From IMG/VR virus record IMGVR_UViG_3300045988_069864: a stretch of 64,000 nucleotides of DNA. The stretch is one strand, 5' to 3'. The notes under the pieces were generated by a model. That model ran no database searches. It was given only the letters and a program-made list of their open reading frames with translations, and was not told the origin of the DNA. Position 1 is the first letter of the stretch, and every line of letters starts with the position of its first letter. Of this stretch, positions 371 through 14,045 are shown one piece after another. The position numbers were made by a program, and so were the translations under genes. This stretch comes from a virus.

Positions 371-661
371 ATGTTAGAAAACAAATTCCAAGCAAATCTT
401 ATCAAAGAGCTTAAGAAACTGTTTCCTGGATGCATCGTAATGAAGAATGACTCGAGTTATATTCAAGGCATTCCCGATTTGTTGATTCTCTTCCAGGATA
501 AGTGGGCTTCCCTCGAAGTCAAGAAGAACGCGAGCGCGTCAAAACGACCGAATCAAGAATACTATGTTGGGATGATGGATAAGATGTCATTTTCTCGTTT
601 CATCTGTCCCGAGAACAAAGACGAAATCCTAAATGAACTTGCAAATAAATTCAACAGTTAA
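371..661 (+). CDS. VRR-NUC-like PD-(D/E)xK nuclease (Holliday-junction-resolvase-like)
   Basis: 96 aa. 'GIPDLLIL...ASLEVKK' gives the D...ExK core. SD GAAAGGAGG lies upstream. Confidence 0.55.
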   Translation: MLENKFQANLIKELKKLFPGCIVMKNDSSYIQGIPDLLILFQDKWASLEVKKNASASKRPNQEYYVGMMDKMSFSRFICPENKDEILNELANKFNS

Positions 662-676
662 GGAGAATAGTTAGCA

Positions 677-1234
677 ATGATATTTAACAATCATCGAAAT
701 CTTAACGGTCTACACGCTCCGTTCTCAGCGAGTCAATCCAGTTGGCTTCGCTATGATATTTCAAAAGCAATTGAAGTTTATCAAAACAAGAAAGCTGCAG
801 AGATTGGAACTAAACTCCATGCCTGGGCTAAAGAAACTATAGATCTTGGTATTAAGCAGCCTCGTTCTAAGAAGACCCTTTATGCGTATGTGAATGACGC
901 AATTGGTTTTCGAATGGCGACTGAGGTGGTGTTATATTATTCTGACAGATTCTTCGGTACTGCCGATGCTATTTCTTTCAGAGATAATTTTTTGAGAATC
1001 CACGATTTGAAAACTGGAAAAGGACCTGTACACAGAGAGCAGCTTGAAGTATATGCTGCTCTTTTTTGTTTGGAGTACAGAGTCAAACCTAGTGATATTC
1101 GTATCGAGTTGAGAATCTATCAGAACGATGACTGTGATATTTGGGAACCGTCTCCCGAAGACATCGAGTTCGTTATGAACAAGATTATTACTCTGAATAA
1201 AGAACTTGAACGACTAGATTTTGAGGAGGCTTAG
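677..1234 (+). CDS. PD-(D/E)xK exonuclease-fold protein (RecB/Cas4-like, no Cys cluster)
   Basis: 185 aa. 'GTADAISF...LRIHDLKTGK' is a D...DxK nuclease core. Confidence 0.45.
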   Translation: MIFNNHRNLNGLHAPFSASQSSWLRYDISKAIEVYQNKKAAEIGTKLHAWAKETIDLGIKQPRSKKTLYAYVNDAIGFRMATEVVLYYSDRFFGTADAISFRDNFLRIHDLKTGKGPVHREQLEVYAALFCLEYRVKPSDIRIELRIYQNDDCDIWEPSPEDIEFVMNKIITLNKELERLDFEEA

Positions 1235-1238
1235 TACC

Positions 1239-4187
1239 ATGAATTCTGTTGCGGAAGAAATTAAATCATATTATGGTTCTAATTCCATGAACGATGACGA
1301 ATACCTTGAACATTATGGCATGCCTCGCCGTAGTGGTCGATATCCTTGGGGTTCTGGCGAAAATCCATATCAGCACGGTAATGATTTTCTAAGCCGAATC
1401 GAAAAACTAAAAAGTAAAGGCTGGACCGAGACACCTGAAAACATCAAGAACGAATTTGGTCTGACTACTACTCAATATCGAGCTCAGAAAGCATTGGCTA
1501 AAGATGAACGTCGAGGCTATGACGTGGCGAGAGCTAAATCGTTGGAAAGTGACGGTTTGGGTCCTACTGCCATTGCCAAAAAGATGTCTGAAGAACAAGG
1601 CAAAAACATCAACGAATCTACTATTCGTTCTTGGCTTAATGAAGAGTCCGAAGCTCGTATGAATCAGGCTAAACAGACTGCTGAATTTATTAAGAAACAA
1701 ATCGACGAAAAAGGCATGATTGATGTCGGTGTTGGTGTTGAACGAGAACTTGGTATATCCAAAGAAAAACTTAATCAAGCACTGGCAATTCTCGAAGCTG
1801 AAGGCTATGAGCTTTATGGCGGTCGTGTTCCGCAGGTTACTAATCCTAATCAAATGACCACTCTTAAAGTCATTTGTCCTCCTGGTACTGAACATAAAGA
1901 TATTTATGACTACGAAAATGTACATTCTCTGAATGAATATATTTCTCGTGACGGTGGCGAAACTTACGAAAAGAAGTTCCACTATCCTGAAAGCATGGAT
2001 GCTAGTCGTCTTATGATTCGGTATAAAGAAGATGGCGGTATCGATAAAGATGGTGTTATTGAACTTCGTCGAGGCGTTCCTGATTTGTCTCTTGGTGAAT
2101 CTCGTATCTCTCAGGTTCGAATCCTCGTTGACGGTGACAGATATTTGAAGGGCATGGCTGTTTATTCGGATAATATGCCTGATGGTGTCGATGTTATATT
2201 TAACACCAATAAGTCCAAAGACGTTGCTATGCGAGATGTCCTCAAAAAGATTAAGGATGATCCGGACAATCCCTTTGGTTCCGCTATCAAGGATGTGGAA
2301 AAGGGCGGTCAGTATTGGTATGATCCTAAAACCGGTAAACAAGTATCGGCATCAACTCCTGGTGCTAAGTTGGGTCTGATCAATAAACGAGCTGATGAGG
2401 GCGATTGGTCTGAATGGAAAGATGCACTTCCTGCTCAGTTCTTGTCTAAGCAATCATTGCATTTGGCTAAACAGCAGCTGAACATTGCCGCTTCTGATAA
2501 AGAGGCTGAGTTTGCAGAACTAAGTTCACTTACTAATCCTACTGTAAAGAAGTATTTACTTAATAAATTTGCAGATGAGTGTGATTCAGCAGCTGTACAT
2601 CTTCAAGCAGCAGCTCTGCCTGGTCAGAAGTATCATGTTATATTACCTGTTACTTCTATGAAGGACACCGAAGTGTATGCTCCAAGGTATGAAAATGGAT
2701 CTAAGCTCGCACTTATTCGATATCCTCATGGCGGCACCTTTGAGATTCCTATCTTGACTGTTAATAATAAACAGAAAGACGCCAAAGCTTTGCTTGGCAC
2801 TGATATTTCGGATGCTATCGCTATCAATAGTAAGGTTGCTGAGCGTCTGTCTGGTGCCGACTTTGATGGCGATACCGTTATGTGTATTCCTACTCATGAC
2901 AAAGCTGGCAAGGTCAAGATTACATCTACGAATCCGCTTAAGGGTCTCGAAGGATTTGATCCCAAGACTTCTTATGGTGCTACGAAGACTGTCAAAGATT
3001 CCGATGGCACTGAACATTATCTTCGTAACGGTAAAGAATATAAGATTATGAAGAATACTCAGACCGAAATGGGTAAGATCTCTAATCTTATCAGCGATAT
3101 GACACTGAAAGGTGCTAATGATGACGAGTTAGCTAGAGCTGTTCGTCATAGCATGGTTGTCATCGATGCCGAGAAACATAAGCTTGACTATAAGCAGAGC
3201 GAGATCGACAATAACATCTCCGCTCTTAAGAAGGAGTACCAGAATGGCGGCGGTGCATCCACCTTGATCTCTAGAAGTAAAGGCGAAATCCCGGTTCTTA
3301 AACGACAGGGTAGCCCTATAGTCAATACCAAGACCAAGAACGGAAAACCCAACCCCGACTATGATTCTAGTAAGCCTGAAGGGTCTCTCATATGGAAGAC
3401 TGCCGATGATGTGAATTACCAGTATACAAAAGTAAACAAGAAAACTGGTGAAGTTACTACCATCACCAAGCAACGTACTCAGAAGAGTACTCGTATGGCG
3501 GAGACAACCGATGCACGTACCCTTATCTCGGATGCAGATACCCCCATGGAACGGGCCTATGCGGACTATGCTAACCATATGAAGAACCTGGCCAATAAGG
3601 CCCGCATTGAGGTATCCACTACCGGTAAGATAGCATACTCCTCTAAGGCTAAAGCTACCTATCAGACCGAGGTAAAGAGTCTCAATGATAAGCTGAATAA
3701 TGCCTTACTTAATGCTCCACGAGAGCGACAGGCTACCCTTAAGGCTAATGCAGAGGTACAGCGCAAGGTTGATGCTGCTAAGGCCGCTATCAAAAAAGAG
3801 AACCCCGAGGCCACTAATAGGGAGATTAACAAGCTTGTTCGTAAGAAGATTGATGTTAAGAAGACCGGACAGCAGGCTCTTACTAAATATCGTACTGAGG
3901 CTGGTTCTGTAAAACGTAGTGATCGATCTATTAAGATTACTGATAAGGAATGGGAAGCTATTCAGGCTGGTGCTATTAGTGAGAATGTACTTAAGAAGAT
4001 CCTTGCTAACTCTGACGTGGATAGTCTTAGACAAAGAGCAACGCCTCGTTCTACAACAACGCTTAGTACAGCTAAGATTAATAGAATCAAAGCTATGCGC
4101 GCTTCTGGTAAAACACTTAATGAAATCGCAAATGCGCTTAATGTTTCTGCATCAACAGTTGCAACTTATGTGAAAGGAGTGAATTGA
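1239..4187 (+). CDS. Large multidomain protein with an RdRP/YonO-like two-barrel RNA polymerase catalytic motif and several HTH-like segments
   Basis: 982 aa from ATG 1239 (SD GAGGAGG 1223-1229). 'LALIRYPHGGTFEI...AERLSGADFDGDTVM' (DFDGD at nt 2859-2873) matches the metal-binding loop pattern of beta-prime, YonO and eukaryotic RdRP DPBB domains. C-terminal 'TLNEIANALNVSASTVATYVKG' looks like an HTH. Confidence 0.5.
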   Translation: MNSVAEEIKSYYGSNSMNDDEYLEHYGMPRRSGRYPWGSGENPYQHGNDFLSRIEKLKSKGWTETPENIKNEFGLTTTQYRAQKALAKDERRGYDVARAKSLESDGLGPTAIAKKMSEEQGKNINESTIRSWLNEESEARMNQAKQTAEFIKKQIDEKGMIDVGVGVERELGISKEKLNQALAILEAEGYELYGGRVPQVTNPNQMTTLKVICPPGTEHKDIYDYENVHSLNEYISRDGGETYEKKFHYPESMDASRLMIRYKEDGGIDKDGVIELRRGVPDLSLGESRISQVRILVDGDRYLKGMAVYSDNMPDGVDVIFNTNKSKDVAMRDVLKKIKDDPDNPFGSAIKDVEKGGQYWYDPKTGKQVSASTPGAKLGLINKRADEGDWSEWKDALPAQFLSKQSLHLAKQQLNIAASDKEAEFAELSSLTNPTVKKYLLNKFADECDSAAVHLQAAALPGQKYHVILPVTSMKDTEVYAPRYENGSKLALIRYPHGGTFEIPILTVNNKQKDAKALLGTDISDAIAINSKVAERLSGADFDGDTVMCIPTHDKAGKVKITSTNPLKGLEGFDPKTSYGATKTVKDSDGTEHYLRNGKEYKIMKNTQTEMGKISNLISDMTLKGANDDELARAVRHSMVVIDAEKHKLDYKQSEIDNNISALKKEYQNGGGASTLISRSKGEIPVLKRQGSPIVNTKTKNGKPNPDYDSSKPEGSLIWKTADDVNYQYTKVNKKTGEVTTITKQRTQKSTRMAETTDARTLISDADTPMERAYADYANHMKNLANKARIEVSTTGKIAYSSKAKATYQTEVKSLNDKLNNALLNAPRERQATLKANAEVQRKVDAAKAAIKKENPEATNREINKLVRKKIDVKKTGQQALTKYRTEAGSVKRSDRSIKITDKEWEAIQAGAISENVLKKILANSDVDSLRQRATPRSTTTLSTAKINRIKAMRASGKTLNEIANALNVSASTVATYVKGVN

Positions 4188-4189
4188 TC

Positions 4190-4438
4190 ATGGAAAACGT
4201 TTGTGCATTGACCACAATTGACAATCCTTTTGATCCTTTTGATCAATTCAGTCAATGGTTTCTCTTTGATACAGAAAAAGGTTACAATTCTTGTTCTTAT
4301 CTTGCTCGAATTGCACAAACTTCTGATGAAATGTCTGAACAAGAATACAATCATGAAGTTGAACGAGCAATTGACGAAATTGTCACGATTAATCCTTTAG
4401 GAATTTACAAGAAAGTAACCAAACCCCAGGTAAATTAA
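4190..4438 (+). CDS. hypothetical phage protein
   Basis: 82 aa ORF, ATG 10 nt after AGGAG, abutting the stop of the upstream gene. Confidence 0.5.
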   Translation: MENVCALTTIDNPFDPFDQFSQWFLFDTEKGYNSCSYLARIAQTSDEMSEQEYNHEVERAIDEIVTINPLGIYKKVTKPQVN

Positions 4439-4458
4439 AAAGATGTAGAGCTAATGAT

Positions 4459-4467
4459 GGGGGGGGG
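4459..4467. repeat. G9 homopolymer tract
   Basis: GGGGGGGGG in a roughly 40% GC genome. It can pair with CCCCCTCC about 14 nt downstream. Confidence 0.9.
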
Positions 4468-4624
4468 TCGCTAAAACTACACCCCCTCCTCACATCGCCG
4501 GCCTCCTTGAAAATTCTCCGGAGGGATTTTTCAGAAAAGCATTTATATTTGAGGTAATGACGATACCAGTACGCTTAAGGTCGAGGAAGTTACGAATTGA
4601 TTGAGAATTAGATTGCTATTTTCC

Positions 4625-4727
4625 TGGGTAGTGTTTAGACGAGTTCATAAGGTTGAATATTGGTCATACTTTGCGCTCCTTTCAGTGAATCGTTATTGAC
4701 CTTATGGGCTCCTTTAAGCACTACCCA
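4625..4727 (+). other. Long imperfect inverted repeat or hairpin in the non-coding region upstream of terS (cos/pac or structured-RNA candidate)
   Basis: The left arm TGGGTAGTGTTTAGACGAGTTCATAAGGTTGAATA matches the reverse complement of the right arm TATTGACCTTATGGGCTCCTTTAAGCACTACCCA at about 27 of 34 positions. Confidence 0.45.
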
Positions 4728-4775
4728 AAACTGTAACTAAAGTCATTAATAACTGTATGAAAGGAGGCAGGATTA

Positions 4776-5120
4776 TTGGCTAAAGTTAAATCAAAACCAA
4801 AGTATTCTAAAGAAAACCAACCCAAAATAAGGCCAGCTCTTACCCCAGAAGCAAGAGAGAATCAGCTTATTTCTTTAGCAGTCGACTTAGTGGAACAGAG
4901 ATTGCTTGATGGTACTGCCTCTTCTCAGGAAACTACTCATTTTCTCAAACTCGGTTCTATGAAGAATCGTCTTGAGATGGAAAAACTTCAAGAAGAGAAC
5001 AAGTTACTCCAGGCAAAGACTGAAGCGCTTCAATCCGCTAAACGAGTTGAAGAACTGTATTCCGAAGCTATCTCTGCCATGCGTCGATATAGCGGTAATG
5101 GTGATCCTGATGAGTATTAG
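4776..5120 (+). CDS. terS: putative terminase small subunit
   Basis: 114 aa, TTG start 8 nt after AAGGAGG. Basic N-terminus and coiled-coil C-terminus. It is the first gene after a 340-bp non-coding region and lies next to an HNH endonuclease. The motif 'DGTASSQETTHFLKLGS' is recalled from terS-like proteins. Confidence 0.45.
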   Translation: MAKVKSKPKYSKENQPKIRPALTPEARENQLISLAVDLVEQRLLDGTASSQETTHFLKLGSMKNRLEMEKLQEENKLLQAKTEALQSAKRVEELYSEAISAMRRYSGNGDPDEY

Positions 5121-5559
5121 ACGATATTCCGAGCTAATTACCATTCCTACATACGAGGAACGATTTAAGTATCTTCAACTTAAAGGTGCTGTTGGCGCTG
5201 ATACCTTTGGCTATGATCGATATTTGAATCAGATTCTGTATAACTCTCCGGAGTGGAAGCGATTCAGAAATGACATCATCATTCGAGATAATGGCTGTGA
5301 TCTTGCTTGTGAAGGATATGAGATTAAAGGTTGGAAAGATCAAGAAGGTAAGATTCATAGAGCTAGAATAATCATTCATCATATGAATCCTATCACAGTC
5401 GACGACATTCTTAATCATAATCCAATGGTGTTTGATCCTGAGAATGTTATAACTACAGTTCTCAATACTCACAACGCCATTCATTACGGTGACGAGAAGT
5501 TATTAGTTACTGGACCAGTCACAAGGTCTCCTAACGATACGTGTCTCTGGCGAAAATAA
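5110..5559 (+). CDS. HNH endonuclease (packaging-associated)
   Basis: 'IIIHHMNPIT...NVITTVLNTHNAIH' is an HNH core. The position next to terminase genes is typical of cos phages. Confidence 0.8.
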   Translation: MSIRRYSELITIPTYEERFKYLQLKGAVGADTFGYDRYLNQILYNSPEWKRFRNDIIIRDNGCDLACEGYEIKGWKDQEGKIHRARIIIHHMNPITVDDILNHNPMVFDPENVITTVLNTHNAIHYGDEKLLVTGPVTRSPNDTCLWRK

Positions 5560-5576
5560 TCAAAAGGAGAATAATT

Positions 5577-5918
5577 GTGGAAAGTATTCTGACATCAATT
5601 AAAAAGTTACTCGGAATCGCCGAAGAAGATACCAACTTTGATCAGGATCTTATTATGCATATCAACTCGGTATTCATGATCCTAACTCAACTTGGTGTTG
5701 GTCCTTCCAAGGGATTCTCCATCAAAGATGAGAATGACGTCTGGTCCGATTTTATACCAGAACAGTCTCCTCTCGAGGCAGTCAAAACTTATGTCTACAT
5801 GAAAGTTAGACTTATGTTTGATCCTCCTTTAAGTTCCGCAGTCGTAGACGCCATTAATAGAAACATCTCCGAACTTGAGTGGCGACTTAATGTTGGTGCT
5901 GAGAATGGAGGTGAGTAA
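5577..5918 (+). CDS. putative head-tail connector (gp6/QLRG-like) protein
   Basis: GTG start after AAGGAG. The 'SIKKLLGI..ED..FD.DLI' N-terminus and the size fit connector/adaptor proteins. The position before terL is unusual. Confidence 0.35.
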   Translation: MESILTSIKKLLGIAEEDTNFDQDLIMHINSVFMILTQLGVGPSKGFSIKDENDVWSDFIPEQSPLEAVKTYVYMKVRLMFDPPLSSAVVDAINRNISELEWRLNVGAENGGE

Positions 5919-5919
5919 T

Positions 5920-6192
5920 ATGACAGAATGGATGGTTGCTGGGATCGTTGTAACAATTATTGGCGGTGGTTGGGCAGTTATTAAAGCTATTTCCGGTATT
6001 GTTCAACCATTGACAGAACAAATCACAAGACTCAATGATAGCATGAAATCGATCACTAATGATATGAACGAACTTACTGAACGAAACAGTAAAACTCATA
6101 CCCGATTGTTTCAAGCTATCGAAGAGCATGGTAAAATGCTAAGCGAACATGAAATTCGAATTGTAAAACTGGAAGAACATGAAAAGAAATGA
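5920..6192 (+). CDS. small membrane protein with coiled coil (BhlA/UviB holin-like architecture)
   Basis: 90 aa. N-terminal TM 'WMVAGIVVTIIGGGWAVIKAI' followed by a coiled coil. SD GGAGGTGAG. Confidence 0.35.
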   Translation: MTEWMVAGIVVTIIGGGWAVIKAISGIVQPLTEQITRLNDSMKSITNDMNELTERNSKTHTRLFQAIEEHGKMLSEHEIRIVKLEEHEKK

Positions 6193-6209
6193 GTGAAAGG
6201 AGGGATAGT

Positions 6210-6764
6210 ATGAAGTCTTATAATCACTCTGAAGAACTCTATCATCATGGCATCAAAGGTATGAAATGGGGTGTCCGGCGCTATCAGAATTCCGATGGTT
6301 CGCTTACTGCGGCTGGTCAGAAACGATACGCGAGAGATGCTCGAGAAAAAGAATTTAATAAGTATGATTCGTCCACTAAGACATATTACAAAACGTCTAA
6401 GAAAAATGGGCGAAGTGATTTGGAAGCAGATCCTAAACGTTATGCTAAAGAGGATCTATCTCGAACCAAAAAACTTGCTGACGAGTCAGCCAATCTTACA
6501 AGAAATCTAAAAACTGCTAATGATCAGGCTATCAAAAGTAAACCCAAGACTCGAATGGACCTTAGCAAGATGACTGACCAGGAGATGCGGGAAAAGATTA
6601 ATCGAGAATTACTTGAACGACAGTATAACGATGTCTTTAATCCTCCTACTGTTTCTAAGGGTCGGGAGTATGCAAGCAAAGTTCTCGATACTACTGGTAC
6701 TGTTTTGGCTATTACTAGTTCCGCATTGGGAATCGCCCTGGCTATTAAAGATCTTAAGGGGTGA
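6210..6764 (+). CDS. 'ELYHHGxKGxKWG' paralog 1 (basic, C-terminal TM helix), function unknown
   Basis: N-terminus 'SEELYHHGIKGMKWGVRRYQNSDGSLTAAGQKRY'. SD AAGGAGGG. C-terminal 'VLAITSSALGIALAI'. Confidence 0.7.
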   Translation: MKSYNHSEELYHHGIKGMKWGVRRYQNSDGSLTAAGQKRYARDAREKEFNKYDSSTKTYYKTSKKNGRSDLEADPKRYAKEDLSRTKKLADESANLTRNLKTANDQAIKSKPKTRMDLSKMTDQEMREKINRELLERQYNDVFNPPTVSKGREYASKVLDTTGTVLAITSSALGIALAIKDLKG

Positions 6765-6772
6765 TCGTCAAA

Positions 6773-7828
6773 ATGGAATTGTATCACCACGGAATCAAGG
6801 GACAGAAGTGGGGCATTCGCCGGTATCAATATGCTGACGGTACTTATACTCCTGCTGGTAGGAAGCGATACGGCGTTAGTCAAAGTTCAAGTAATGCTCA
6901 ACGTGTTGCAACCATGATGGGTATGAGAGTAAAAGATGTGGTTAACACAGCGAGAACTCAAGTTACCGGAAGACAGTATGTTGATACATATCTGAAACGA
7001 GGTACAACATTTGCAAGAATTCAAACTTCTAAAGAGTTTGAAAATTTTGCATTCTACGCCACTTATAAGAAGGCTGACTCTGATAAGTATATGGGTCTGT
7101 TTGGGAAGAATCTGACTAGTCGTGCAAACAGTGATGCTAAGCGAGCAGAGAAAACAGCCAATGCTTCCGGTAGTGAAGCTGATGCCGCCACAGCTAAGCA
7201 ACTTCGAGATAAAGCTAACAACATGAAAGTTTATCAGCTGAAGCTAGAGACTACTAAGAAACTGAAAGTTCCGTCAGATGAGAATGCTAGTGACATCACT
7301 GCTAATCTACTGAAAGACTCTGAGTTTAAGAAGAATGTTGTTGCTTCAATTGAGGACTCGAAGGAAAAGATGCGTCGTCCTACTCAACAGGTCTTGTTTA
7401 AGCAAGCTCAAAATGCTTTGAATAAAGATCCGAGTAGGATGACAACTTCAGAGAAGGTTGCAGTCTACAAAGCTTTGAATCTGTCTTTGACTAATCACAA
7501 TCAGCAGGAAGTTGCAGCTCAGGCTAAGTTCTACTCGGAACTAAAGAAGAAAGGTTACAATGCACTGCTCGATTATAATGACAAAGATTATTCGAGTTAT
7601 CATGCTAAGCGACCAATGATCGTGTTCGATACTGACTCCGTGAAGCTTCAATCAGTGGCTGAGGCTAATCCGAAGGTCGTGGAAAAGATGTATGCGAAGT
7701 ATAACGCTGAACGAATCATGAAGGAAGTCGGAGCCAATACAATTGGCTATGTCGGCAAACTTGGTAAAAAGACTGTATCCGAATGCGAATCTTATGTGAA
7801 ACAGAAAACTGACAGCTATTTGAGTTAA
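6773..7828 (+). CDS. 'ELYHHGxKGxKWG' paralog 2, function unknown
   Basis: N-terminus 'MELYHHGIKGQKWGIRRYQYADGTYTPAGRKRY'. 351 aa. Confidence 0.7.
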   Translation: MELYHHGIKGQKWGIRRYQYADGTYTPAGRKRYGVSQSSSNAQRVATMMGMRVKDVVNTARTQVTGRQYVDTYLKRGTTFARIQTSKEFENFAFYATYKKADSDKYMGLFGKNLTSRANSDAKRAEKTANASGSEADAATAKQLRDKANNMKVYQLKLETTKKLKVPSDENASDITANLLKDSEFKKNVVASIEDSKEKMRRPTQQVLFKQAQNALNKDPSRMTTSEKVAVYKALNLSLTNHNQQEVAAQAKFYSELKKKGYNALLDYNDKDYSSYHAKRPMIVFDTDSVKLQSVAEANPKVVEKMYAKYNAERIMKEVGANTIGYVGKLGKKTVSECESYVKQKTDSYLS

Positions 7829-7833
7829 TTTTA

Positions 7834-7843
7834 GGGGGGGGGG
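7834..7843. repeat. G10 homopolymer tract forming the SD region of paralog 3
   Basis: TTTTAGGGGGGGGGGTAGATTAATG. Confidence 0.9.
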
Positions 7844-7850
7844 TAGATTA

Positions 7851-8570
7851 ATGAATTCCAATGAACTTTACCACCATGGCGTCAAAGGCATGAAATGGGG
7901 TGTTCGCAAAGATCGATCTAGCTACACATCGACTGGACTTAGAGCTGCTATTGCTAGAAGACAGAATGAAAAAGTAGATGCGAACTTTAAAAACTGGAAA
8001 GAAAATTCTGAGAAAAGGACCAATGCCATTGAGCTCGGCAAGAAAATGAACCAATCCAAGATGGCATACGAAAATAACAAATCCGATAAGACATTTCGGC
8101 AGACGTATAAGCAGGACAGTAAAGCTTATAAAAAGGCTCTTAGAAGTAACACTACTTATCGCAAAGGTCAGATTAAGCAGGAAGTTGGTCAGGATGCTTC
8201 TCGGAAATACCTGAGCGAAGCTAAAAAGATAAAGAAACAGTTGGATTCCGATCCTTCTAATAAGCAGCTCCAAAAGAAGTATAATGATCTGATGAGTAAG
8301 CACGACATTGAACGAGCTAATGCTCGTAGAGCTCCAGAAGTAGCAGCGAACCGGTCTAGAAAGAAAGCTGCCATCAAGAGAGCGATGACAATGTCCGTAA
8401 AAGCTGCAGCTACAACCGCTGTTGTTACTGCTGGAACATACGCGGTAAATAAGTATTTGTCAGATCATAATGTAACTTTGAATGGCAACAATCTTCGAGT
8501 CGATTCTAACATGGTCAACACATTTAGTAATGCTGTCAAAGTTGGTAGCGAAATTTTTAAGTATATTTAA
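7851..8570 (+). CDS. 'ELYHHGxKGxKWG' paralog 3 (basic, C-terminal TM helix), function unknown
   Basis: N-terminus 'NSNELYHHGVKGMKWGVRKDRS'. C-terminal 'SVKAAATTAVVTAGTYAV'. Confidence 0.7.
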   Translation: MNSNELYHHGVKGMKWGVRKDRSSYTSTGLRAAIARRQNEKVDANFKNWKENSEKRTNAIELGKKMNQSKMAYENNKSDKTFRQTYKQDSKAYKKALRSNTTYRKGQIKQEVGQDASRKYLSEAKKIKKQLDSDPSNKQLQKKYNDLMSKHDIERANARRAPEVAANRSRKKAAIKRAMTMSVKAAATTAVVTAGTYAVNKYLSDHNVTLNGNNLRVDSNMVNTFSNAVKVGSEIFKYI

Positions 8571-8607
8571 CATTTGAGTTCCAGATTAAAGGAGGTGACA
8601 ACTCTAA

Positions 8608-9195
8608 GTGGATTCCAGTGAACTTTACCACCATGGCGTCAAAGGCATGAAATGGGGTGTTAGGCGGTATCAGCGTGAAGATGGTACTCGTACTATTGCT
8701 GGACAGAAGCACGCTCAGACATTAACCGGCGGAGTTGCTGGTGTGATCAGAAAGAAGCAGCGCAGTAATGCTGAAAAAGACTTAGCACGAACGATCTCTA
8801 AGCAAAAGCAAGTCAATAGTGAACTGCGTGAACTTCGCGGTTATTCAAAAAACCCAAGTAAAATCGGTCGTTCAAAATTGGCTACTGCTATTCGAAATCA
8901 GCAGATTAAGTCTTTGGAACGGACCAATTCTAAGCTCGACCAGCGTAAAAAAGAGAGCACGAGCGCTTTGAAAGAGCTGAAACAGATCGATGAATATCAG
9001 GCAAAGAAAGCTGCCGACAGAGCGCAGAGGAAACTCGCTAATGCAAAGATCAAAGATCTTCAGAAGAAGTATGGGCGTCTCGAAGATCAGATGACTTATG
9101 GTAAAAACGCCGACACTAAGGCTAACGCTCGTATTCAGAAGCAGATGTCTAGTATCGACACTCAGATTAACAAGCTTAAAAAGTCTACACGATAA
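8608..9195 (+). CDS. 'ELYHHGxKGxKWG' paralog 4 (very basic coiled coil), function unknown
   Basis: GTG start after AAAGGAGGTG. N-terminus 'DSSELYHHGVKGMKWGVRRYQREDGTRTIAGQKH'. Confidence 0.7.
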   Translation: MDSSELYHHGVKGMKWGVRRYQREDGTRTIAGQKHAQTLTGGVAGVIRKKQRSNAEKDLARTISKQKQVNSELRELRGYSKNPSKIGRSKLATAIRNQQIKSLERTNSKLDQRKKESTSALKELKQIDEYQAKKAADRAQRKLANAKIKDLQKKYGRLEDQMTYGKNADTKANARIQKQMSSIDTQINKLKKSTR

Positions 9196-9209
9196 GGAGC
9201 TAATTCAAA

Positions 9210-10955
9210 ATGGCATTATCAAATACTGCCGTGCCAATCTATTACGGCCAGTTTCGTGATGCCGTATTGAGAGGCGAAATTCCAGTATGTAAAGAAATCT
9301 CTATGGAGATGAACCGAATAGATGGACTCATTGCAAACCCCGGCATTTGGTATGATGACCAAGCTGTCGAGGGTTTTATTGCATTTTGTGAGAATGAACT
9401 TACGTTGACTGACGGAGAAGACCTTAAGCTTCTAGATTCATTCAAACTTTGGGCTGAGTCAATTTTCGGTTGGTATTACTTTGTAGAGAGAAGTGTATAT
9501 GTTCCGTCTCCGGATGGTCATGGCGGTCACTATGAAAGAAAGTCTATTAAGAAACGATTAGTTAACAAGCAATATCTCATCGTTGCTCGCGGTGCGGCTA
9601 AATCAATGTATGGTGCATGTCTTCAGAGTTTCTTCTTGAATGTGGATACCTCAACTACAAATCAGATCACGACTGCTCCGACAATGAAGCAGGCTGAAGA
9701 AGTTATGAGTCCAATTCGAACCGCAATTACTCGATCCCGTGGACCATTGTTTAAGTTCTTAACCGAAGGTTCACTTCAGAATACGACCGGATCTAAAGCC
9801 AATCGTCAGAAGCTTGTACCTACCAAAAAGGGTATTGAGAATTTCTTAACTGGTTCTCTTCTTGAGATCCGACCGATGACAATCGACAAGATTCAGGGTT
9901 CTCGTGCGAAGATCTGGACAATCGATGAATGGCTTTCTGGCGATGTTCGAGAGGACATTGTTGGTGCTGCTGAACAGGGTGCTTCCAAGAACGACGACTA
10001 TCTGATCGTAGCTATCAGCTCAGAAGGTACCGTCCGTAATGGTAGTGGTGATACGATCAAAATGGAATTGATGGACATCTTAAAAGGTGATTACATCAAT
10101 CCTCATGTGTCAATCTGGTGGTACAAGCTGGATGACATTGACGAAGTCGCTAATCCTGATATGTGGCTCAAAGCCAACCCGAATCTCGGTAAGACTGTCA
10201 GCTATGAAACTTATCAGCTTGACGTCGATCGAGCCGAAAAAGCTCCTGCTACACGAAACGACATCCTGGCAAAGCGCTTCGGTATTCCGTGCGAAGGCTA
10301 TACGTATTACTTTACGTACGAGGAAACTCTTCCTCATCGGAGACGAGATTACTGGAGTATGCCGTGTGCACTTGGCGCTGACCTTTCTCAGGGCGATGAC
10401 TTCTGTGCATTTACGTTCATGTTTCCATTGTCCGATGGTTCATTCGGAATCAAGACTCGTAACTACATAACCGAGCTTACATTGATGAAGCTTCCCGGTG
10501 CTATGCGGAACAAGTACAACGAGTTCATGCGCGAAGGAAGCTTAATTGTTATGCCCGGAACTGTTCTTGACATGATGCAAGTTTATGAGGATCTGGATGA
10601 CCACATCGCCAAGTGCGAGTATGACGTTCGTTGCTTCGGTTTCGACCCCTACAATGCTCGTGAGTTTGTAGAACGATGGGAAAGAGAGAATGGTCCTTTT
10701 GGTATTGAAAAAGTCATTCAGGGTGCCAAAACTGAGTCTGTGCCTTTGGGTGAACTGAAGAAACTTTCTGAGGAAAGAATGCTTAGGTTCGATGAAGATC
10801 TTATGACTTTCGCTATGGGTAACTGCATTACTTTGGAAGATACCAACGGTAACCGTAAACTTTTGAAAAAGCGATATGATCAGAAGATCGATGCTGTTGC
10901 AGCTATGATGGATGCTTATGTGGCATTCAAACTTAATCGAGAAGCATTTGAATAA
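9210..10955 (+). CDS. terL: terminase large subunit
   Basis: 581 aa. Size, position before the portal gene and COG4626/Terminase_1-like sequence features (ATPase N-terminus, nuclease C-terminus). Confidence 0.85.
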   Translation: MALSNTAVPIYYGQFRDAVLRGEIPVCKEISMEMNRIDGLIANPGIWYDDQAVEGFIAFCENELTLTDGEDLKLLDSFKLWAESIFGWYYFVERSVYVPSPDGHGGHYERKSIKKRLVNKQYLIVARGAAKSMYGACLQSFFLNVDTSTTNQITTAPTMKQAEEVMSPIRTAITRSRGPLFKFLTEGSLQNTTGSKANRQKLVPTKKGIENFLTGSLLEIRPMTIDKIQGSRAKIWTIDEWLSGDVREDIVGAAEQGASKNDDYLIVAISSEGTVRNGSGDTIKMELMDILKGDYINPHVSIWWYKLDDIDEVANPDMWLKANPNLGKTVSYETYQLDVDRAEKAPATRNDILAKRFGIPCEGYTYYFTYEETLPHRRRDYWSMPCALGADLSQGDDFCAFTFMFPLSDGSFGIKTRNYITELTLMKLPGAMRNKYNEFMREGSLIVMPGTVLDMMQVYEDLDDHIAKCEYDVRCFGFDPYNAREFVERWERENGPFGIEKVIQGAKTESVPLGELKKLSEERMLRFDEDLMTFAMGNCITLEDTNGNRKLLKKRYDQKIDAVAAMMDAYVAFKLNREAFE

Positions 10956-10975
10956 TTCAAAATGGAGATGATTGA

Positions 10976-12223
10976 ATGGGTTTTATAGACCGGCTTCAGC
11001 ATGGATGGAACGCATTCATGAGCAGAGCCCCCACTGGAAGCTATTACGACATTGGACAGAGCTATTCATATCGACCGGATCGAGTGGTTTTTACCCGAGG
11101 CAATGAACGTTCCATTATTACGTCGGTATACAACCGAATTGCTTTGGACGTTTCTGCAATCAATATCAAACATTGCCGTCTGGATAATAATGATCGATAC
11201 ATGTCTGTAATCGACTCTGGTTTGAATAGCTGTTTGAATCTGGAGGCTAATATCGACCAAACTGGACGAGCCTTCATCCAGGATATTGTCATGTCGATGC
11301 TGGACGAAGGTTGCGTAGCTATTGTTCCAGTCGATACGTCTATCGATCCCAAGGTGAGTAGTTCGTACGATATTTTATCGATGCGAACTGGTAAGATCTT
11401 GGATTGGTATCCGGAGCATGTGAAAGTTCGACTCTATAATGAGCGAACAGGTAATAAGGAGGAAATCATCGTCCCGAAGAAAACGGTGGCGATCATTGAG
11501 AATCCTCTTTATGCAGTGACTAATGCTCCTAACTCAACAATGCAACGTCTTATTAGGAAGCTTAGTCTACTCGACGTAACAGATGAGAAGACCGCTTCAG
11601 GTAAATTGGATTTGATCATTCAGTTGCCCTATGTTATTAAGACGGAAGCTAGACGTCAACAAGCCGAAACAAGGCGCAAAGATATCGAGATGCAGCTTGC
11701 CGGAAGTAAGTATGGTATTGCGTACACGGATGGCACTGAAAAGATCACACAGTTAAATCGTTCTGTTGAGAACAATCTTATGTCTCAGATTGAATACTTG
11801 ACGAGCATGCTTTATAGCCAGTTAGGTATCACTCAGAGTATTTTGGATGGTTCTGCAGATGAGAAAACTATGCTGAACTACCATAATCGAACTATCGAAC
11901 CAATTGTTTCTGCGATTGTTGACGAAATGAAACGAAAATTCTTAACTAAAACTGCTCGGTCACAACAGCAGTCTATCTTGTTCTTTAGAGATCCGTTTAA
12001 ACTTGTTCCGTTGAATGACATCGCTGAAATTGGCGATAAATTTACCAGAAATGAGATTATGACGTCTAATGAAATTAGGCAAATCATTGGTATGACACCG
12101 TCTAACGATCCGAAGGCTGACCAGTTGGTTAACAGTAATCTGAATCATCCCGATGAGGAGTCTATGGTACCTGCGGTTTTGACCGAAAACTCTAACGAAG
12201 GGAGAATAAATCAAAATGGTTAA
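10976..12223 (+). CDS. portal protein
   Basis: 415 aa immediately after terL, with portal-like sequence character. Confidence 0.8.
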   Translation: MGFIDRLQHGWNAFMSRAPTGSYYDIGQSYSYRPDRVVFTRGNERSIITSVYNRIALDVSAINIKHCRLDNNDRYMSVIDSGLNSCLNLEANIDQTGRAFIQDIVMSMLDEGCVAIVPVDTSIDPKVSSSYDILSMRTGKILDWYPEHVKVRLYNERTGNKEEIIVPKKTVAIIENPLYAVTNAPNSTMQRLIRKLSLLDVTDEKTASGKLDLIIQLPYVIKTEARRQQAETRRKDIEMQLAGSKYGIAYTDGTEKITQLNRSVENNLMSQIEYLTSMLYSQLGITQSILDGSADEKTMLNYHNRTIEPIVSAIVDEMKRKFLTKTARSQQQSILFFRDPFKLVPLNDIAEIGDKFTRNEIMTSNEIRQIIGMTPSNDPKADQLVNSNLNHPDEESMVPAVLTENSNEGRINQNG

Positions 12224-14045
12224 ATGCGATTTTGCTGGTTGGGCCACGCGAAACGATTTGTTGTGTGGCGATGGCAGAATTATTAAGAAAGATGCGTTTA
12301 AGGATAACGATGGCGACACGGTATCGTTGGTTTGGAATCACGATCATTCTGATCCTAATGCAGTTCTGGGTCATGCTCTGCTTGAGAATCGAGACGAAGG
12401 TGTTTATGCATATTGCACCTTCAATGACACTGAGCAGGGTCGAAACGCCAAGGAACTGGTTCGTCATGGTGATGTAAGTGCTCTTTCCATTTATGCTAAT
12501 AAGCTGAAACAGAATGGTAAAGAAGTTGTTCATGGTGCAATTCGGGAGCTGAGTCTCGTACTTGCTGGCGCTAATCCCGGTGCATATATCGATTTCGTCA
12601 TGGCTCACAGTGACGATGGCGAAGAATCTGTAGATGGTCTGTATGCTGGATACAATGAAAACATTGTGCTCTATCATTCGGATGAGTCTAGTAATGAAAC
12701 TGACAGTAAAAAGGAGGATTCCAAAGTGGCAGAAGAAACTAAGAAGCCCGAGAGTGAAAAGACTGTTAAAGATGTGTTCGATACTCTCAATGAAGAGCAG
12801 AAGACCGTTGTTTACGCACTGATTGGTCAGGCATTGGAAGATGCCGGTGTTAGTGACGATGACAATGATGCTAATAACGATGACAACAAGGAGGACGACG
12901 AGATGAAACACAATGTATTTGACAATGATGATCAGGAGATGGATAATGTTCTGACTCATTCCGCCATGAATGATGTTCTGGACCTGGCTAAGACGCCCAG
13001 TGTGGGTAGCTTCAAGCAGGCCATGAAAATCTACGAGAATGAGAATGAGCTTCAGCATGACGCTTTCGATAGCGAGACCATGGACATGCTGTTGCCGGAG
13101 TATAAGCTGATCGATCCTGCCGAACCGAAGATTCTGTATCCTGATGACACTTGGGTGTCCAGCGTTATCAATGGTGTACATAAGTCTCCGTATAGCCGTG
13201 TCCGTACTCGTCGTGCTGATGCTCGTCAGGCTGAACTGCAGGCCCTGGGTTACAAGAAGGGTGACTACAAGAAGGAAGGTCAGAAGATCAAACTGCTGGG
13301 TCGTACTCACGATGCTCAGACGGTTTATGTAAAAGATAAGATCAACCGTGATGACGTTCTGGACATCACTGATTTCGACATCGTCGCTTACCAGTGGAAG
13401 ATCATGCGTCACGCTATGGACCAGACTCTGGCCACTGCAATTCTGATTGGCGATGGTCGTGATGATCTGGACCCGGATAAGATCAAGGAAGATCACATTC
13501 GTCCTATTTGGAAGGATGATGATATGTACTGCATCCATCAGGATATCGATATCGCTTCCGCTAAGGCAGAACTTCAGGGCACCAATACTGGCGCTAATTT
13601 CGGCGAGAACTACATTTATGCTGAAGCAATCATCACTGCTGCTCTGTATTCTCGTGAAAAGTATAAGGGTTCTGGCAATCTGACTTTCTTCTGCACTCCG
13701 CATCTGCTGAATGTCATGCTGCTGGCTCGTGATCTGAATGGTCGTCGTATCTATTCTTCTAAGAATGATCTGGTTGCAGCACTGAACGTTAAGGATATTC
13801 AGACCGTCGAACAGTTTGAGGGTCTGACTCGTACCACTACTGATAGCAAGACTAAGAAGCTGCTGGGTCTGTTCGTTAATCTGGCTGACTATCAGCTGGG
13901 CTGTGTCAAGGGCGGCGAGATTACCAAGTTCGAAGGCTTCGATATCGATTTCAACCAGCACAAACTGCTGCTGGAGACTCGTGCTTCTGGTGCCTTGGTT
14001 GAGTGGTATTCCGCTATTGCTCTGGAAGAAGACGTTACTGAATAA
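12216..14045 (+). CDS. prohead protease (HK97/S78-like) fused to an HK97-fold major capsid protein through an acidic linker
   Basis: N-terminus 'VSLVWNHDHSDPNAVLGHA...LSIYA...ELSLVLAGANPGA' is protease-like. It is followed by a D/E/N-rich linker and a roughly 400-aa MCP-like C-terminal part. Confidence 0.7.
   Translation: MVKCDFAGWATRNDLLCGDGRIIKKDAFKDNDGDTVSLVWNHDHSDPNAVLGHALLENRDEGVYAYCTFNDTEQGRNAKELVRHGDVSALSIYANKLKQNGKEVVHGAIRELSLVLAGANPGAYIDFVMAHSDDGEESVDGLYAGYNENIVLYHSDESSNETDSKKEDSKVAEETKKPESEKTVKDVFDTLNEEQKTVVYALIGQALEDAGVSDDDNDANNDDNKEDDEMKHNVFDNDDQEMDNVLTHSAMNDVLDLAKTPSVGSFKQAMKIYENENELQHDAFDSETMDMLLPEYKLIDPAEPKILYPDDTWVSSVINGVHKSPYSRVRTRRADARQAELQALGYKKGDYKKEGQKIKLLGRTHDAQTVYVKDKINRDDVLDITDFDIVAYQWKIMRHAMDQTLATAILIGDGRDDLDPDKIKEDHIRPIWKDDDMYCIHQDIDIASAKAELQGTNTGANFGENYIYAEAIITAALYSREKYKGSGNLTFFCTPHLLNVMLLARDLNGRRIYSSKNDLVAALNVKDIQTVEQFEGLTRTTTDSKTKKLLGLFVNLADYQLGCVKGGEITKFEGFDIDFNQHKLLLETRASGALVEWYSAIALEEDVTE

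Follow-up and report, generated by a model that had tools for sequence, protein, structure and literature searches.

What do consecutive phage genes have in common when their products begin with almost the same peptide and then diverge completely? This question is raised by a 64,000-nucleotide (nt) stretch of viral DNA, the IMG/VR record IMGVR_UViG_3300045988_069864, which we refer to at its full length as the window. On its plus strand, four consecutive open reading frames (ORFs), at positions 6210–6764 (ORF1), 6773–7828 (ORF2), 7851–8570 (ORF3), and 8608–9195 (ORF4), open with ELYHHG[IV]KG[MQ]KWG[VI]R, hereafter the tag, and are followed by the gene for the terminase large subunit, TerL. A first-pass annotation, drawn from the DNA alone, had described them as four tandem paralogs and had likened the tag to the capsid-targeting sequences of phage T4. 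Our computational analysis favors, with a probability of roughly 55%, the reading that the tagged genes encode a polymorphic set of virion-packaged, delivered cargo proteins that share an N-terminal address peptide.

The ORF listing, the protein alignment, and a six-frame scan all agree with the description of four tandem paralogs that have a near-identical N terminus and then part ways. A regular expression for the core pattern found four matches in the six-frame translation of all 64 kb, each of them the N terminus of one of the four ORFs. Every tagged gene has a strong Shine-Dalgarno sequence of its own, of the GGAGG type upstream of ORF1 and ORF2, and a start codon (ATG at 6210, 6773, and 7851, GTG at 8608) that places the onset of the tag at residues 2–9. 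The ORFs lie in different reading frames and are therefore separate genes. Beyond the tag, the four proteins cannot be aligned, and their mean column identity of 38% is driven by the tag. All four are basic, with pI values of 9.7–10.5 and net charges of +13 to +29.

The nucleotide sequences indicate that it is the tag peptide that is being maintained. Among 18 tag codons, ORF1 and ORF2 differ by 11 synonymous and 2 non-synonymous changes, pointing to purifying selection on the peptide. The tag DNA of ORF3 (7852–7904) and that of ORF4 (8609–8661) are 96% identical over 53 nt, whereas the remainder of the two genes is unrelated, suggesting a recent duplication or gene conversion. A megablast search of the region against GenBank phages gave no match, and a scan for promoters and terminators returned sites no more numerous than in shuffled sequence.

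ORF1 (184 amino acids, pI 9.7) is preceded by the Shine-Dalgarno sequence gaaaggaggg and carries its tag at residues 9–41 (nt 6234–6332); it matches the Pfam family DUF7211 (PF23847, E = 1e-10) and phrog_32444 (E = 1.5e-26). Its K/R-rich, helical body contains a second motif, TDQEMREKINRELLERQY, and a C-terminal hydrophobic helix, TTGTVLAITSSALGIALAI, with a Kyte-Doolittle value of 1.64. ORF2 (351 amino acids, tag at residues 2–34; PF23847, E = 3.4e-4; phrog_7502, E = 7.6e-20) has a conserved body of ~300 amino acids that it has in common with gp8 of Streptomyces phage FrodoSwaggins, and 1478 homologues were found. ORF3 (239 amino acids; PF23847, E = 1.6e-11) has a shorter tag at residues 5–23, without the YQNxDGSLT extension, on a very basic body (net +29). 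ORF4 (195 amino acids, tag at residues 5–37; PF23847, E = 1.7e-10) has the Shine-Dalgarno sequence aaaggaggtg and a K/R/Q-rich, probably helical body with a pI of 10.45. The earlier statement that two of the four proteins end in a transmembrane helix holds for ORF1, the only one with a convincing hydrophobic segment; the stretch in ORF3 is weak (Kyte-Doolittle 1.07), internal, and non-terminal, and ORF2 and ORF4 have none.

The tag itself proved to belong to a named family, contrary to the first-pass annotation, which could assign it to none. Pfam DUF7211 is an uncharacterised family whose 25-position model covers the core of the tag only. Three of the four proteins score above its 27-bit gathering score (ORF1, 41.3; ORF3, 43.9; ORF4, 40.5), whereas ORF2 falls below it (20.4), despite a tag that aligns residue for residue with the other three. 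Beyond DUF7211, Pfam and PHROG scans of ORF1–ORF4 matched only unannotated PHROGs. NCBIfam holds no model for the block, a literature search for DUF7211 found no paper, and neither the tag profile nor ORF2 nor the terS-like protein of the window gave a match among PDB sequences. The first-pass annotation had also considered that the block might map to a known enzymatic or structural domain unrelated to targeting; what it maps to is a family to which no function is attached.

Searched against proteins, the tag alignment at first yielded only fragments of 33–74 amino acids, which were uninformative on fusion partners. A profile of the four N termini searched against 1.84 billion representative proteins, by contrast, matched 33,708 clusters (at 50% identity) with E ≤ 1e-3 and 14,800 with E ≤ 1e-10, which makes DUF7211 a very large family. 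Aligning the N termini and searching with a hidden Markov model (HMM), as had been suggested, thus revealed a widespread block that is fused to many unrelated bodies. The consensus of the core is [DE]-L-x-H-[HY]-G-[IV]-K-G-M-K-W-G-V-R-[RK], with conserved positions L(-4), H(-2), G0, G3, W6, G7, and R9. Actinophage tags consist of the core only (L.HYGVKGMKWGV[RK]), and most Firmicutes versions add YQNxDGSLTxAGxxRY; the tag is nearly invariant between phages of the two groups.

Three known kinds of sequence were considered for the tag and rejected. The WXG signal of type VII secretion systems differs in structural context, and the tag has W-G rather than W-x-G. A choline-binding or YD repeat was discarded on the grounds of a single copy and no Pfam match, and an N-terminal extension of the L27 type, cleaved by Prp, on the grounds of no sequence resemblance.

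To what lineage do the tagged genes belong, and where in its genomes do they lie? We mapped the tag and the module proteins of the window onto 78 IMG/VR loci, 74 loci from GTDB genomes, and 8 cultured phages. Most of the GTDB loci are prophages in Oscillospiraceae, Lachnospiraceae, Ruminococcus, and Faecalibacterium, with Clostridium leptum DSM 753 among the genomes. The module, like all of these loci and phages, belongs to the Lactococcus phage 1706-like supergroup, which encodes a YonO-like RNA polymerase (RNAP) and whose hosts are Firmicutes (Lactococcus, Faecalibacterium) and Actinobacteria (Streptomyces, Arthrobacter, Gordonia, Rhodococcus, Microbacterium, Curtobacterium, Bifidobacterium). 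The supergroup was described by Koert et al. (bioRxiv 10.1101/842583), and the passages searched in that preprint do not mention the tagged genes.

The order of genes in these loci is near-universal, on one strand: RNAP, terS-like gene, HNH endonuclease, connector, tagged genes, TerL, further tagged genes, portal, and protease/capsid. The gap of about 4 kb between terS and TerL, which had been called unusual, is therefore the rule across the lineage. TerL was present within the fetched stretch in 148 of ~152 tag-bearing loci (79 of 78 + 3, and 69 of 74), and all tagged genes were on the TerL strand. The number of tagged genes per locus ranges from 1 to 11, and from 1 to 7 with a median of 3 in the 103 complete loci. 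A tblastn search with the tag found cultured phages of Streptomyces, Curtobacterium, Rhodococcus, and Faecalibacterium, the hits always lying beside TerL or portal. FrodoSwaggins has five tagged genes (gp6 and gp8–11), four of them consecutive between TerL and portal, and ReqiPepy6 has six. Tagged genes were also found in all of Circum, Chikenjars, BitterVaud1, and Camille, which had been chosen via their RNAP and not via the tag.

One contig (JAEEHF010000085.1) has tagged genes in two places. At 617–13585 of locus L130, tagged genes (one bears two tags) directly follow a multi-domain endolysin gene (GH25 + ChW + CHAP + PG_binding_1) away from TerL, and ~15 kb further on (L139) a second set lies by TerL.

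The bodies behind the tag are highly diverse. The 434 unique tagged ORFs of the surveyed loci, in which the tag begins at a median of 15 residues past the upstream stop codon, fall into 137 body clusters, mostly singletons. Type A, the ORF1-like bodies (123 members), are short and basic, have a second motif LSxxELxxxxNRxxLExxY, and usually end in a C-terminal hydrophobic helix; they occur in 91 of the 103 complete loci (88%), mostly just 5' of TerL. Type B, the ORF2-like bodies (83 members, including the kinship with FrodoSwaggins gp8), occur in 45 of the 103. The body clusters of ORF3 and ORF4 have nine and six members, respectively. ORF1 is thus the near-universal type A and ORF2 the common type B; the variable members ORF3 and ORF4 are rarer. 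The remaining bodies are small families and singletons, mostly in the slot between TerL and portal. Net positive charge is found in 98% of bodies, and a hydrophobic segment (Kyte-Doolittle ≥ 1.6), mostly C-terminal, in 30%.

When 132 representative bodies were scanned against Pfam and followed up, several enzymatic and toxin domains emerged in relatives. GNAT acetyltransferase bodies are present, for example, at L097:10224-10799. An Ntox50 body at L156:3531-4025 (E = 7.6e-19) is a full-length match and belongs to a cluster of five. The Gln_amidase/papain-fold toxin 1 domain (Tox-PL1) forms the body at L068:3950-5104 and also that of a BFVD protein of Siphoviridae sp. ctgBD49. A 2'-5' RNA ligase/2H phosphoesterase domain occurs in ReqiPepy6 gp013 and Chikenjars gp16, and PG_binding_1 on one tagged body. 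An ADP-ribosyltransferase-like R/STS pattern (in L083) and an HExxH motif (in FrodoSwaggins gp10) had been seen by eye; Pfam did not confirm them, and they were not counted.

In the L156 locus, the tagged Ntox50 RNase gene (164 amino acids) is followed by a partly overlapping acidic ORF (64–93 amino acids, no known domain) and then by the portal gene; the first two together span 3531–4203. The RNase and the acidic protein are a candidate toxin-immunity pair within the head module, in the single case examined.

Two tags occur in 13 of the 434 ORFs, and also in orf7 of phage 1706 and gp7 of Circum. In five metagenomic proteins with two to five tags (P0121, P0124, P0128, P0131, and P0145; 323–1569 amino acids), inspection by eye revealed H[SGA] 5–25 residues before the internal tags.

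Support for a presence in virions comes from the record that the depositors of phage 1706 submitted (EU081845). Its labels comprise "putative ..." predictions, 55 ORFs called "unknown," and 11 called plainly "structural protein": orf6, 7, 11, 12, 13, 17, 20, 21, 62, 71, and 75. Among the latter is orf7, a protein of 462 amino acids with two tags, encoded directly 5' of TerL, and also orf75, the orthologue of the YonO-like RNAP, which bears a variant tag. As three of the 11 are encoded away from the morphogenesis module, their label can hardly derive from position or homology, and we infer that it reflects experimental detection. The paper on 1706 reportedly used SDS-polyacrylamide gel electrophoresis and liquid chromatography-tandem mass spectrometry. 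RefSeq has renamed orf75 "RNA-dependent RNA polymerase," thereby hiding the hint of a virion-borne polymerase. The other two of these three, orf62 and orf71, are small proteins encoded in the 1706 replication region (1053–1331 and 5659–6012 of locus L168).

The RNAP of the window (1221–4187, plus strand) is a YonO-like single-subunit, two-barrel enzyme (phrog_4291, E = 0 over residues 22–986) with the motif GADFDGDT and a C-terminal HTH_38 domain; a two-barrel, YonO-like core with a DxDGD loop is reported for this RNAP family by Koert et al. (bioRxiv 10.1101/842583). Its N terminus had been noted as loosely similar to the tag, and profile comparison lends this statistical support. The variant tag spans residues 29–46, LEHYGMPRRSGRYPWGSG, encoded by nt 1305–1358. 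In the RNAP family, the motif [DE][DE]-I-L-x-H-Y-G-[VMTI]-[KP]-R-[RH]-S-G-R-Y-P-W-G-S-G is conserved near the N terminus; L, H, [YH], G, [IV], W, and G are in common with the tag, and the RNAP has a four-residue insertion. When 45 RNAP motifs were aligned with 352 tag instances in hhalign, a match was obtained with 92% probability (P = 5.3e-7, 23 columns). A full-length RNAP profile of 920 columns gave this same N-terminal site as its best match (P = 5.6e-4), compared with P = 0.41 for a reversed-tag control.

The shared pattern L.H[YHWF]G[IVMT].{4,14}WG matched 16 times in 2.59 million residues of six-frame ORFs, a set that excludes the flagged tag ORFs and the 45 unique RNAP motifs, and the 10 matches listed are all duplicate RNAP copies. 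Tag HMMs run on the RNAP remained below significance, and hhalign of the RNAP N terminus against the four-sequence tag alignment gave P = 0.076, significance being reached only with the larger profiles. From these sequence comparisons, a relationship of the RNAP N terminus to the tag is supported but not proven.

Structure prediction is in keeping with a tag that has little fold of its own. The AlphaFold2 model of ORF1, built on a 124-sequence alignment, has a mean predicted local distance difference test (pLDDT) score of 75 and a body of three long helices. The tag core (residues 6–20) scores ~50, and residues 21–40 form a helix-and-bridge element with scores of 79–89. The model fits a tag that is a docking peptide on a helical body rather than a fold. 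Foldseek of the ORF1 model against BFVD returned sequence relatives only. The model of ORF2 was poor (pLDDT 54), and its best Foldseek match, to otubain (E = 0.56), is not meaningful.

Together, the selection on the tag, the synteny with TerL and portal, the polymorphic bodies, the toxin domains among them, the basic charge of 98% of bodies, the labels in the 1706 record, and the disordered tag core are the reasons for which we read the tag as a packaging signal. From the layout of the locus, the tagged genes would be expressed with the head genes, in the same co-directional late block. The tag, disordered on its own, might then dock on a highly conserved component of the packaging vertex or procapsid interior; candidates are the portal, TerL, and the protease-capsid protein at its inner face. 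The tagged proteins would thereby become enclosed in the head, with their basic, largely helical bodies lying with the DNA. On infection, they would exit via the tail with the DNA, and the C-terminal hydrophobic helices may act at the membrane. The enzymatic bodies of relatives (acetyltransferase, RNase, deamidase, and phosphoesterase) would act on host targets, to go by their domain content and the precedents of T4 and MuF. The conserved tag DNA could in addition serve as a recombination handle for the swapping of bodies, as the 96% identity between ORF3 and ORF4 and the multi-tag fusions suggest. We put forward, tentatively and with some doubt, the wider possibility that one tag loads an exchangeable set of small basic DNA-associated proteins, toxin-type enzymes, and the YonO-like RNAP into the capsid of a very widespread siphovirus lineage.

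Several observations weigh against the packaging reading. The virion support is inferred from a database label in the relative 1706, not in the window phage. In that same record, orf62 and orf71 are labeled "structural protein" and have no tag, so the tag is not required for presence in the virion. The 2H domain precedes the tag in ReqiPepy6 gp013 and Chikenjars gp16, where the tag is found at about residues 340–357, and the 150 best-scoring representatives all have 2–5 tags per polypeptide, in proteins of up to 1569 amino acids, with a tag opening each module; an N-terminal position is therefore usual but not obligatory. No conserved motif for cleavage stood out C-terminal to the tag, and no recognisable enzymatic or effector domain was found in ORF1–ORF4 themselves in the Pfam and PHROG scans. 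The loci were retrieved with the window's own tag, which skews the sample to close relatives, and the restriction to one lineage may thus be overstated. Finally, a type A body in 88% of complete loci looks closer to a component of assembly than to optional cargo. The likeness to a T4 capsid-targeting tag proposed in the first-pass annotation is accordingly borne out in part: the locking to TerL and portal, the toxin bodies known as MuF cargo, the 1706 labels, and the statistical support for the RNAP resemblance speak for it, and the internal tags and the near-universal type A body do not.

The last of these points leads to the alternative that survives best, namely that the tagged proteins are accessory factors of head assembly or DNA packaging (scaffold-like, docking portal to TerL, or condensing DNA) and that the tag binds TerL or portal, with the proteins at work in morphogenesis and not delivered as effectors. 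Such factors would account for a type A gene that is nearly universal (91 of 103) and usually lies directly between connector and TerL, for tagged genes that flank the most conserved protein of the module (TerL, 70–79% identity), and for the long helices predicted for ORF1, as in scaffolding proteins. The basic bodies, and a lineage that has protease and capsid fused and lacks a separate scaffold gene, fit them as well. They leave unexplained the 137 unrelated body families in 1–11 copies per genome, the fusions to RNase, deamidase, GNAT, and 2H domains, and the RNAP motif. We consider this reading unlikely for the set as a whole; it may apply to the type A member alone.

Could the tagged proteins instead act at the membrane and never enter the capsid? 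They would then be tail-anchored proteins for the timing of lysis, envelope remodelling, or superinfection exclusion, with the tag as a cytoplasmic interaction motif. The 30% of bodies with a hydrophobic segment, mostly near the C terminus and including that of ORF1, agree with such a role, as do the endolysin and holin genes in the same region of actinophages, the tagged genes that follow a GH25/CHAP endolysin in L130, and the one body with PG_binding_1. The other 70% of bodies have no such segment, and of the window's own proteins ORF2 and ORF4 lack one and that of ORF3 is weak. Moreover, 1706 orf7 is labeled structural, toxins with cytoplasmic targets (RNase, deamidase) and a soluble RNAP bear the tag, and hydrophobic helices are equally expected for ejected proteins that act on membranes. 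We regard a purely membrane-bound role as improbable.

An equally improbable alternative is that the tag is a linear motif that recruits a host factor, such as a chaperone, a protease, or a component of transcription or translation, and that its location among the head genes is historical. The predicted disorder of the isolated tag, its near invariance between Actinobacteria and Firmicutes (as would be the case with a universally conserved host partner), and its occurrence on the RNAP all fit this proposal. Phage-encoded TerL and portal are likewise highly conserved, however, and the proposal explains neither the fixed position by TerL or portal in ~160 loci nor the two "structural protein" labels in 1706 nor the parallel with MuF toxins. 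Each of these three alternatives explains part of the data and none the whole set. That the similarity is due to chance or low complexity, or that the four ORFs are pieces of a single broken gene, is supported by nothing but the low-complexity nature of the bodies and is refuted, to a negligible residue, by four matches in exact register with none elsewhere in six frames, Pfam E-values down to 1.6e-11, separate frames each with its own Shine-Dalgarno sequence, and the same arrays in hundreds of genomes.

The genes around the array follow the order of the lineage, all of them on the plus strand: RNAP, terS-like gene, HNH, connector, a transmembrane/coiled-coil protein, the four tagged genes, TerL, portal, and the protease-capsid fusion. 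The first gene of the packaging module (4776–5120) is only putatively terS-like. Its product matches phrog_4259 (E = 1.2e-45), to which no function is attached, and gave no Pfam, NCBIfam, or PDB match, so the terS label given to it earlier is unverified; a homologous gene lies 5' of HNH in 124 of ~152 loci. Family matches did bear out three other earlier assignments. These are the HNH endonuclease (5110–5559; phrog_4321, E = 5.9e-57), the connector or virion structural protein (5541–5918; PF24829 Phage_connect_2, E = 7.5e-41; phrog_4247), which is an orthologue of 1706 orf6 and forms the left edge of the first slot for tagged genes, and TerL (9210–10955; TerL_nuclease, E = 6.8e-33; phrog_9). 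The small protein encoded at 5875–6192, with an N-terminal transmembrane segment and a coiled coil, had been called BhlA-like. It has no BhlA match in Pfam and is instead a phrog_1009 protein (E = 7e-14) outside the tag family, seen in 2 of the 78 viral loci; its gene occupies the site of the holin and endolysin genes in actinophage relatives.

TerL of the window is 70–79% identical to TerL of Streptomyces, Rhodococcus, Arthrobacter, and Gordonia phages, although the G+C content here is ~42% and theirs is very different. Across phyla, this identity far exceeds that of the portal (56–59%), which in turn exceeds that of the capsid fusion (32–41%). The portal gene (10976–12223; PF04860, E = 2.5e-19) is the right edge of the second slot for tagged genes, between TerL and portal, which is empty in the window phage. 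It is directly followed by the fusion of prohead protease and major capsid protein (12216–14045; Peptidase_S78, E = 6.1e-7), an ORF of 609 amino acids that comprises an S78 protease domain (residues 22–126), an acidic linker, and the major capsid protein, and whose orthologues are annotated as capsid/protease fusions. This protein is a candidate docking and processing partner of the tag. Between portal and capsid genes there is neither a separate scaffold gene nor a MuF gene; as MuF is missing from its usual place in the lineage, the tag system could fill its role.

No listed ORF of at least 40 amino acids occurs in a stretch of ~340 nt (4439–4775) that separates the first packaging gene from the gene next to the RNAP on its 3' side. 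The chromosome ends of linear actinophage genomes map to this position, and related IMG/VR contigs of ~65.5 kb begin near it. The stretch is likely the cos region.

If the tag is a packaging signal, the orphan family DUF7211, with more than 33,000 clusters at 50% identity, would gain a function, and the variable arrays around the terminase would be explained in a lineage with abundant members in the human gut and soil. The short peptide, in that case a naturally portable delivery tag, might allow foreign proteins to be loaded into phages that infect Gram-positive bacteria. The tagged proteins would also represent a second, non-homologous system by which polymorphic effectors are delivered, in addition to those of MuF toxins and T4 internal proteins.

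How does the tag system compare with these and other known systems? The phage head protein MuF is known in fusions with various toxins, Ntox50 and Tox-PL1 among them (Zhang et al. 2012, PMC3482391; Jamet et al. 2017, PMC5576092). Jamet et al. list Ntox50 among the MuF toxin domains and report that muf genes adjoin portal or terminase genes and are followed by small ORFs for putative immunity proteins (PMC5576092). The tagged genes resemble this arrangement in their location in the packaging module by portal and terminase, in a constant N-terminal part joined to variable C-terminal toxins, and in a predicted route through head packaging. In the one case examined, L156, the small downstream ORF is a candidate for immunity. 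The tagged genes differ in that the constant part is a peptide of ~20–30 residues rather than the folded MuF domain of ~300 residues, that arrays reach 11 genes per genome rather than one, and that most bodies are short, basic, helical, and free of toxin domains. No MuF domain (PF04233/PF06152 and relatives) was found in ORF1–ORF4, in the 132 body representatives, or in 30 further relatives.

In T4, the capsid-targeting sequence (CTS), a peptide of ~10 residues, attaches to the scaffolding core (gp22) and is cleaved off by gp21; Alt is an ADP-ribosyltransferase. By way of a short shared N-terminal tag, the T4 internal proteins IPI–III and Alt enter the prohead and are injected with the DNA to act against host defences (PMC3012670). 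The likeness lies in a shared tag on otherwise unrelated, basic bodies (98% net positive in our set), with occasional enzymatic bodies. However, the tag described here is 17–33 residues long with invariant L/H/G/W/G and is sometimes internal or repeated, the phages are siphoviruses in which protease and capsid protein are fused and a separate scaffold is lacking, and the internal protein genes of T4 are not clustered at terminase or portal genes. Pfam and PHROG scans of ORF1–ORF4 gave no match to the T4 internal protein and Alt families, and inspection revealed no resemblance to the T4 CTS.

The fusions with 2–5 tags and up to 1569 amino acids recall a third system, the polyvalent proteins. 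These, as Iyer et al. reportedly described them in 2017, are large multi-domain proteins of phages and conjugative elements whose effector modules are thought to be delivered with the DNA. In polyvalent proteins, enzymatic domains are strung together without a repeated address peptide, whereas here a tag opens each module and the modules are mostly separate genes.

Virion-packaged RNAPs are represented by the vRNAP of N4 and by gp66 of crAss-like phages, a YonO/RdRP-like two-barrel enzyme; both are found in podoviruses. The phages studied here are similar in having a YonO-like enzyme, with a variant tag, whose 1706 orthologue is labeled structural. No packaging tag common to polymerase and other cargo is known to have been described for these virion RNAPs, and YonO of SPbeta, a late-gene polymerase, is not known to be packaged. 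Should the RNAP of this lineage share the loading by tag, this would be the first packaging signal to link a virion RNAP with other ejected cargo. The signature RNAP would then travel in the virion, changing the view of early transcription, and would be the first virion-borne two-barrel RNAP in siphoviruses, in a lineage that extends from gut Clostridia to soil Actinobacteria. On present sequence evidence, the tag system is a member of neither the MuF nor the T4 CTS family and is analogous, not homologous, to both.

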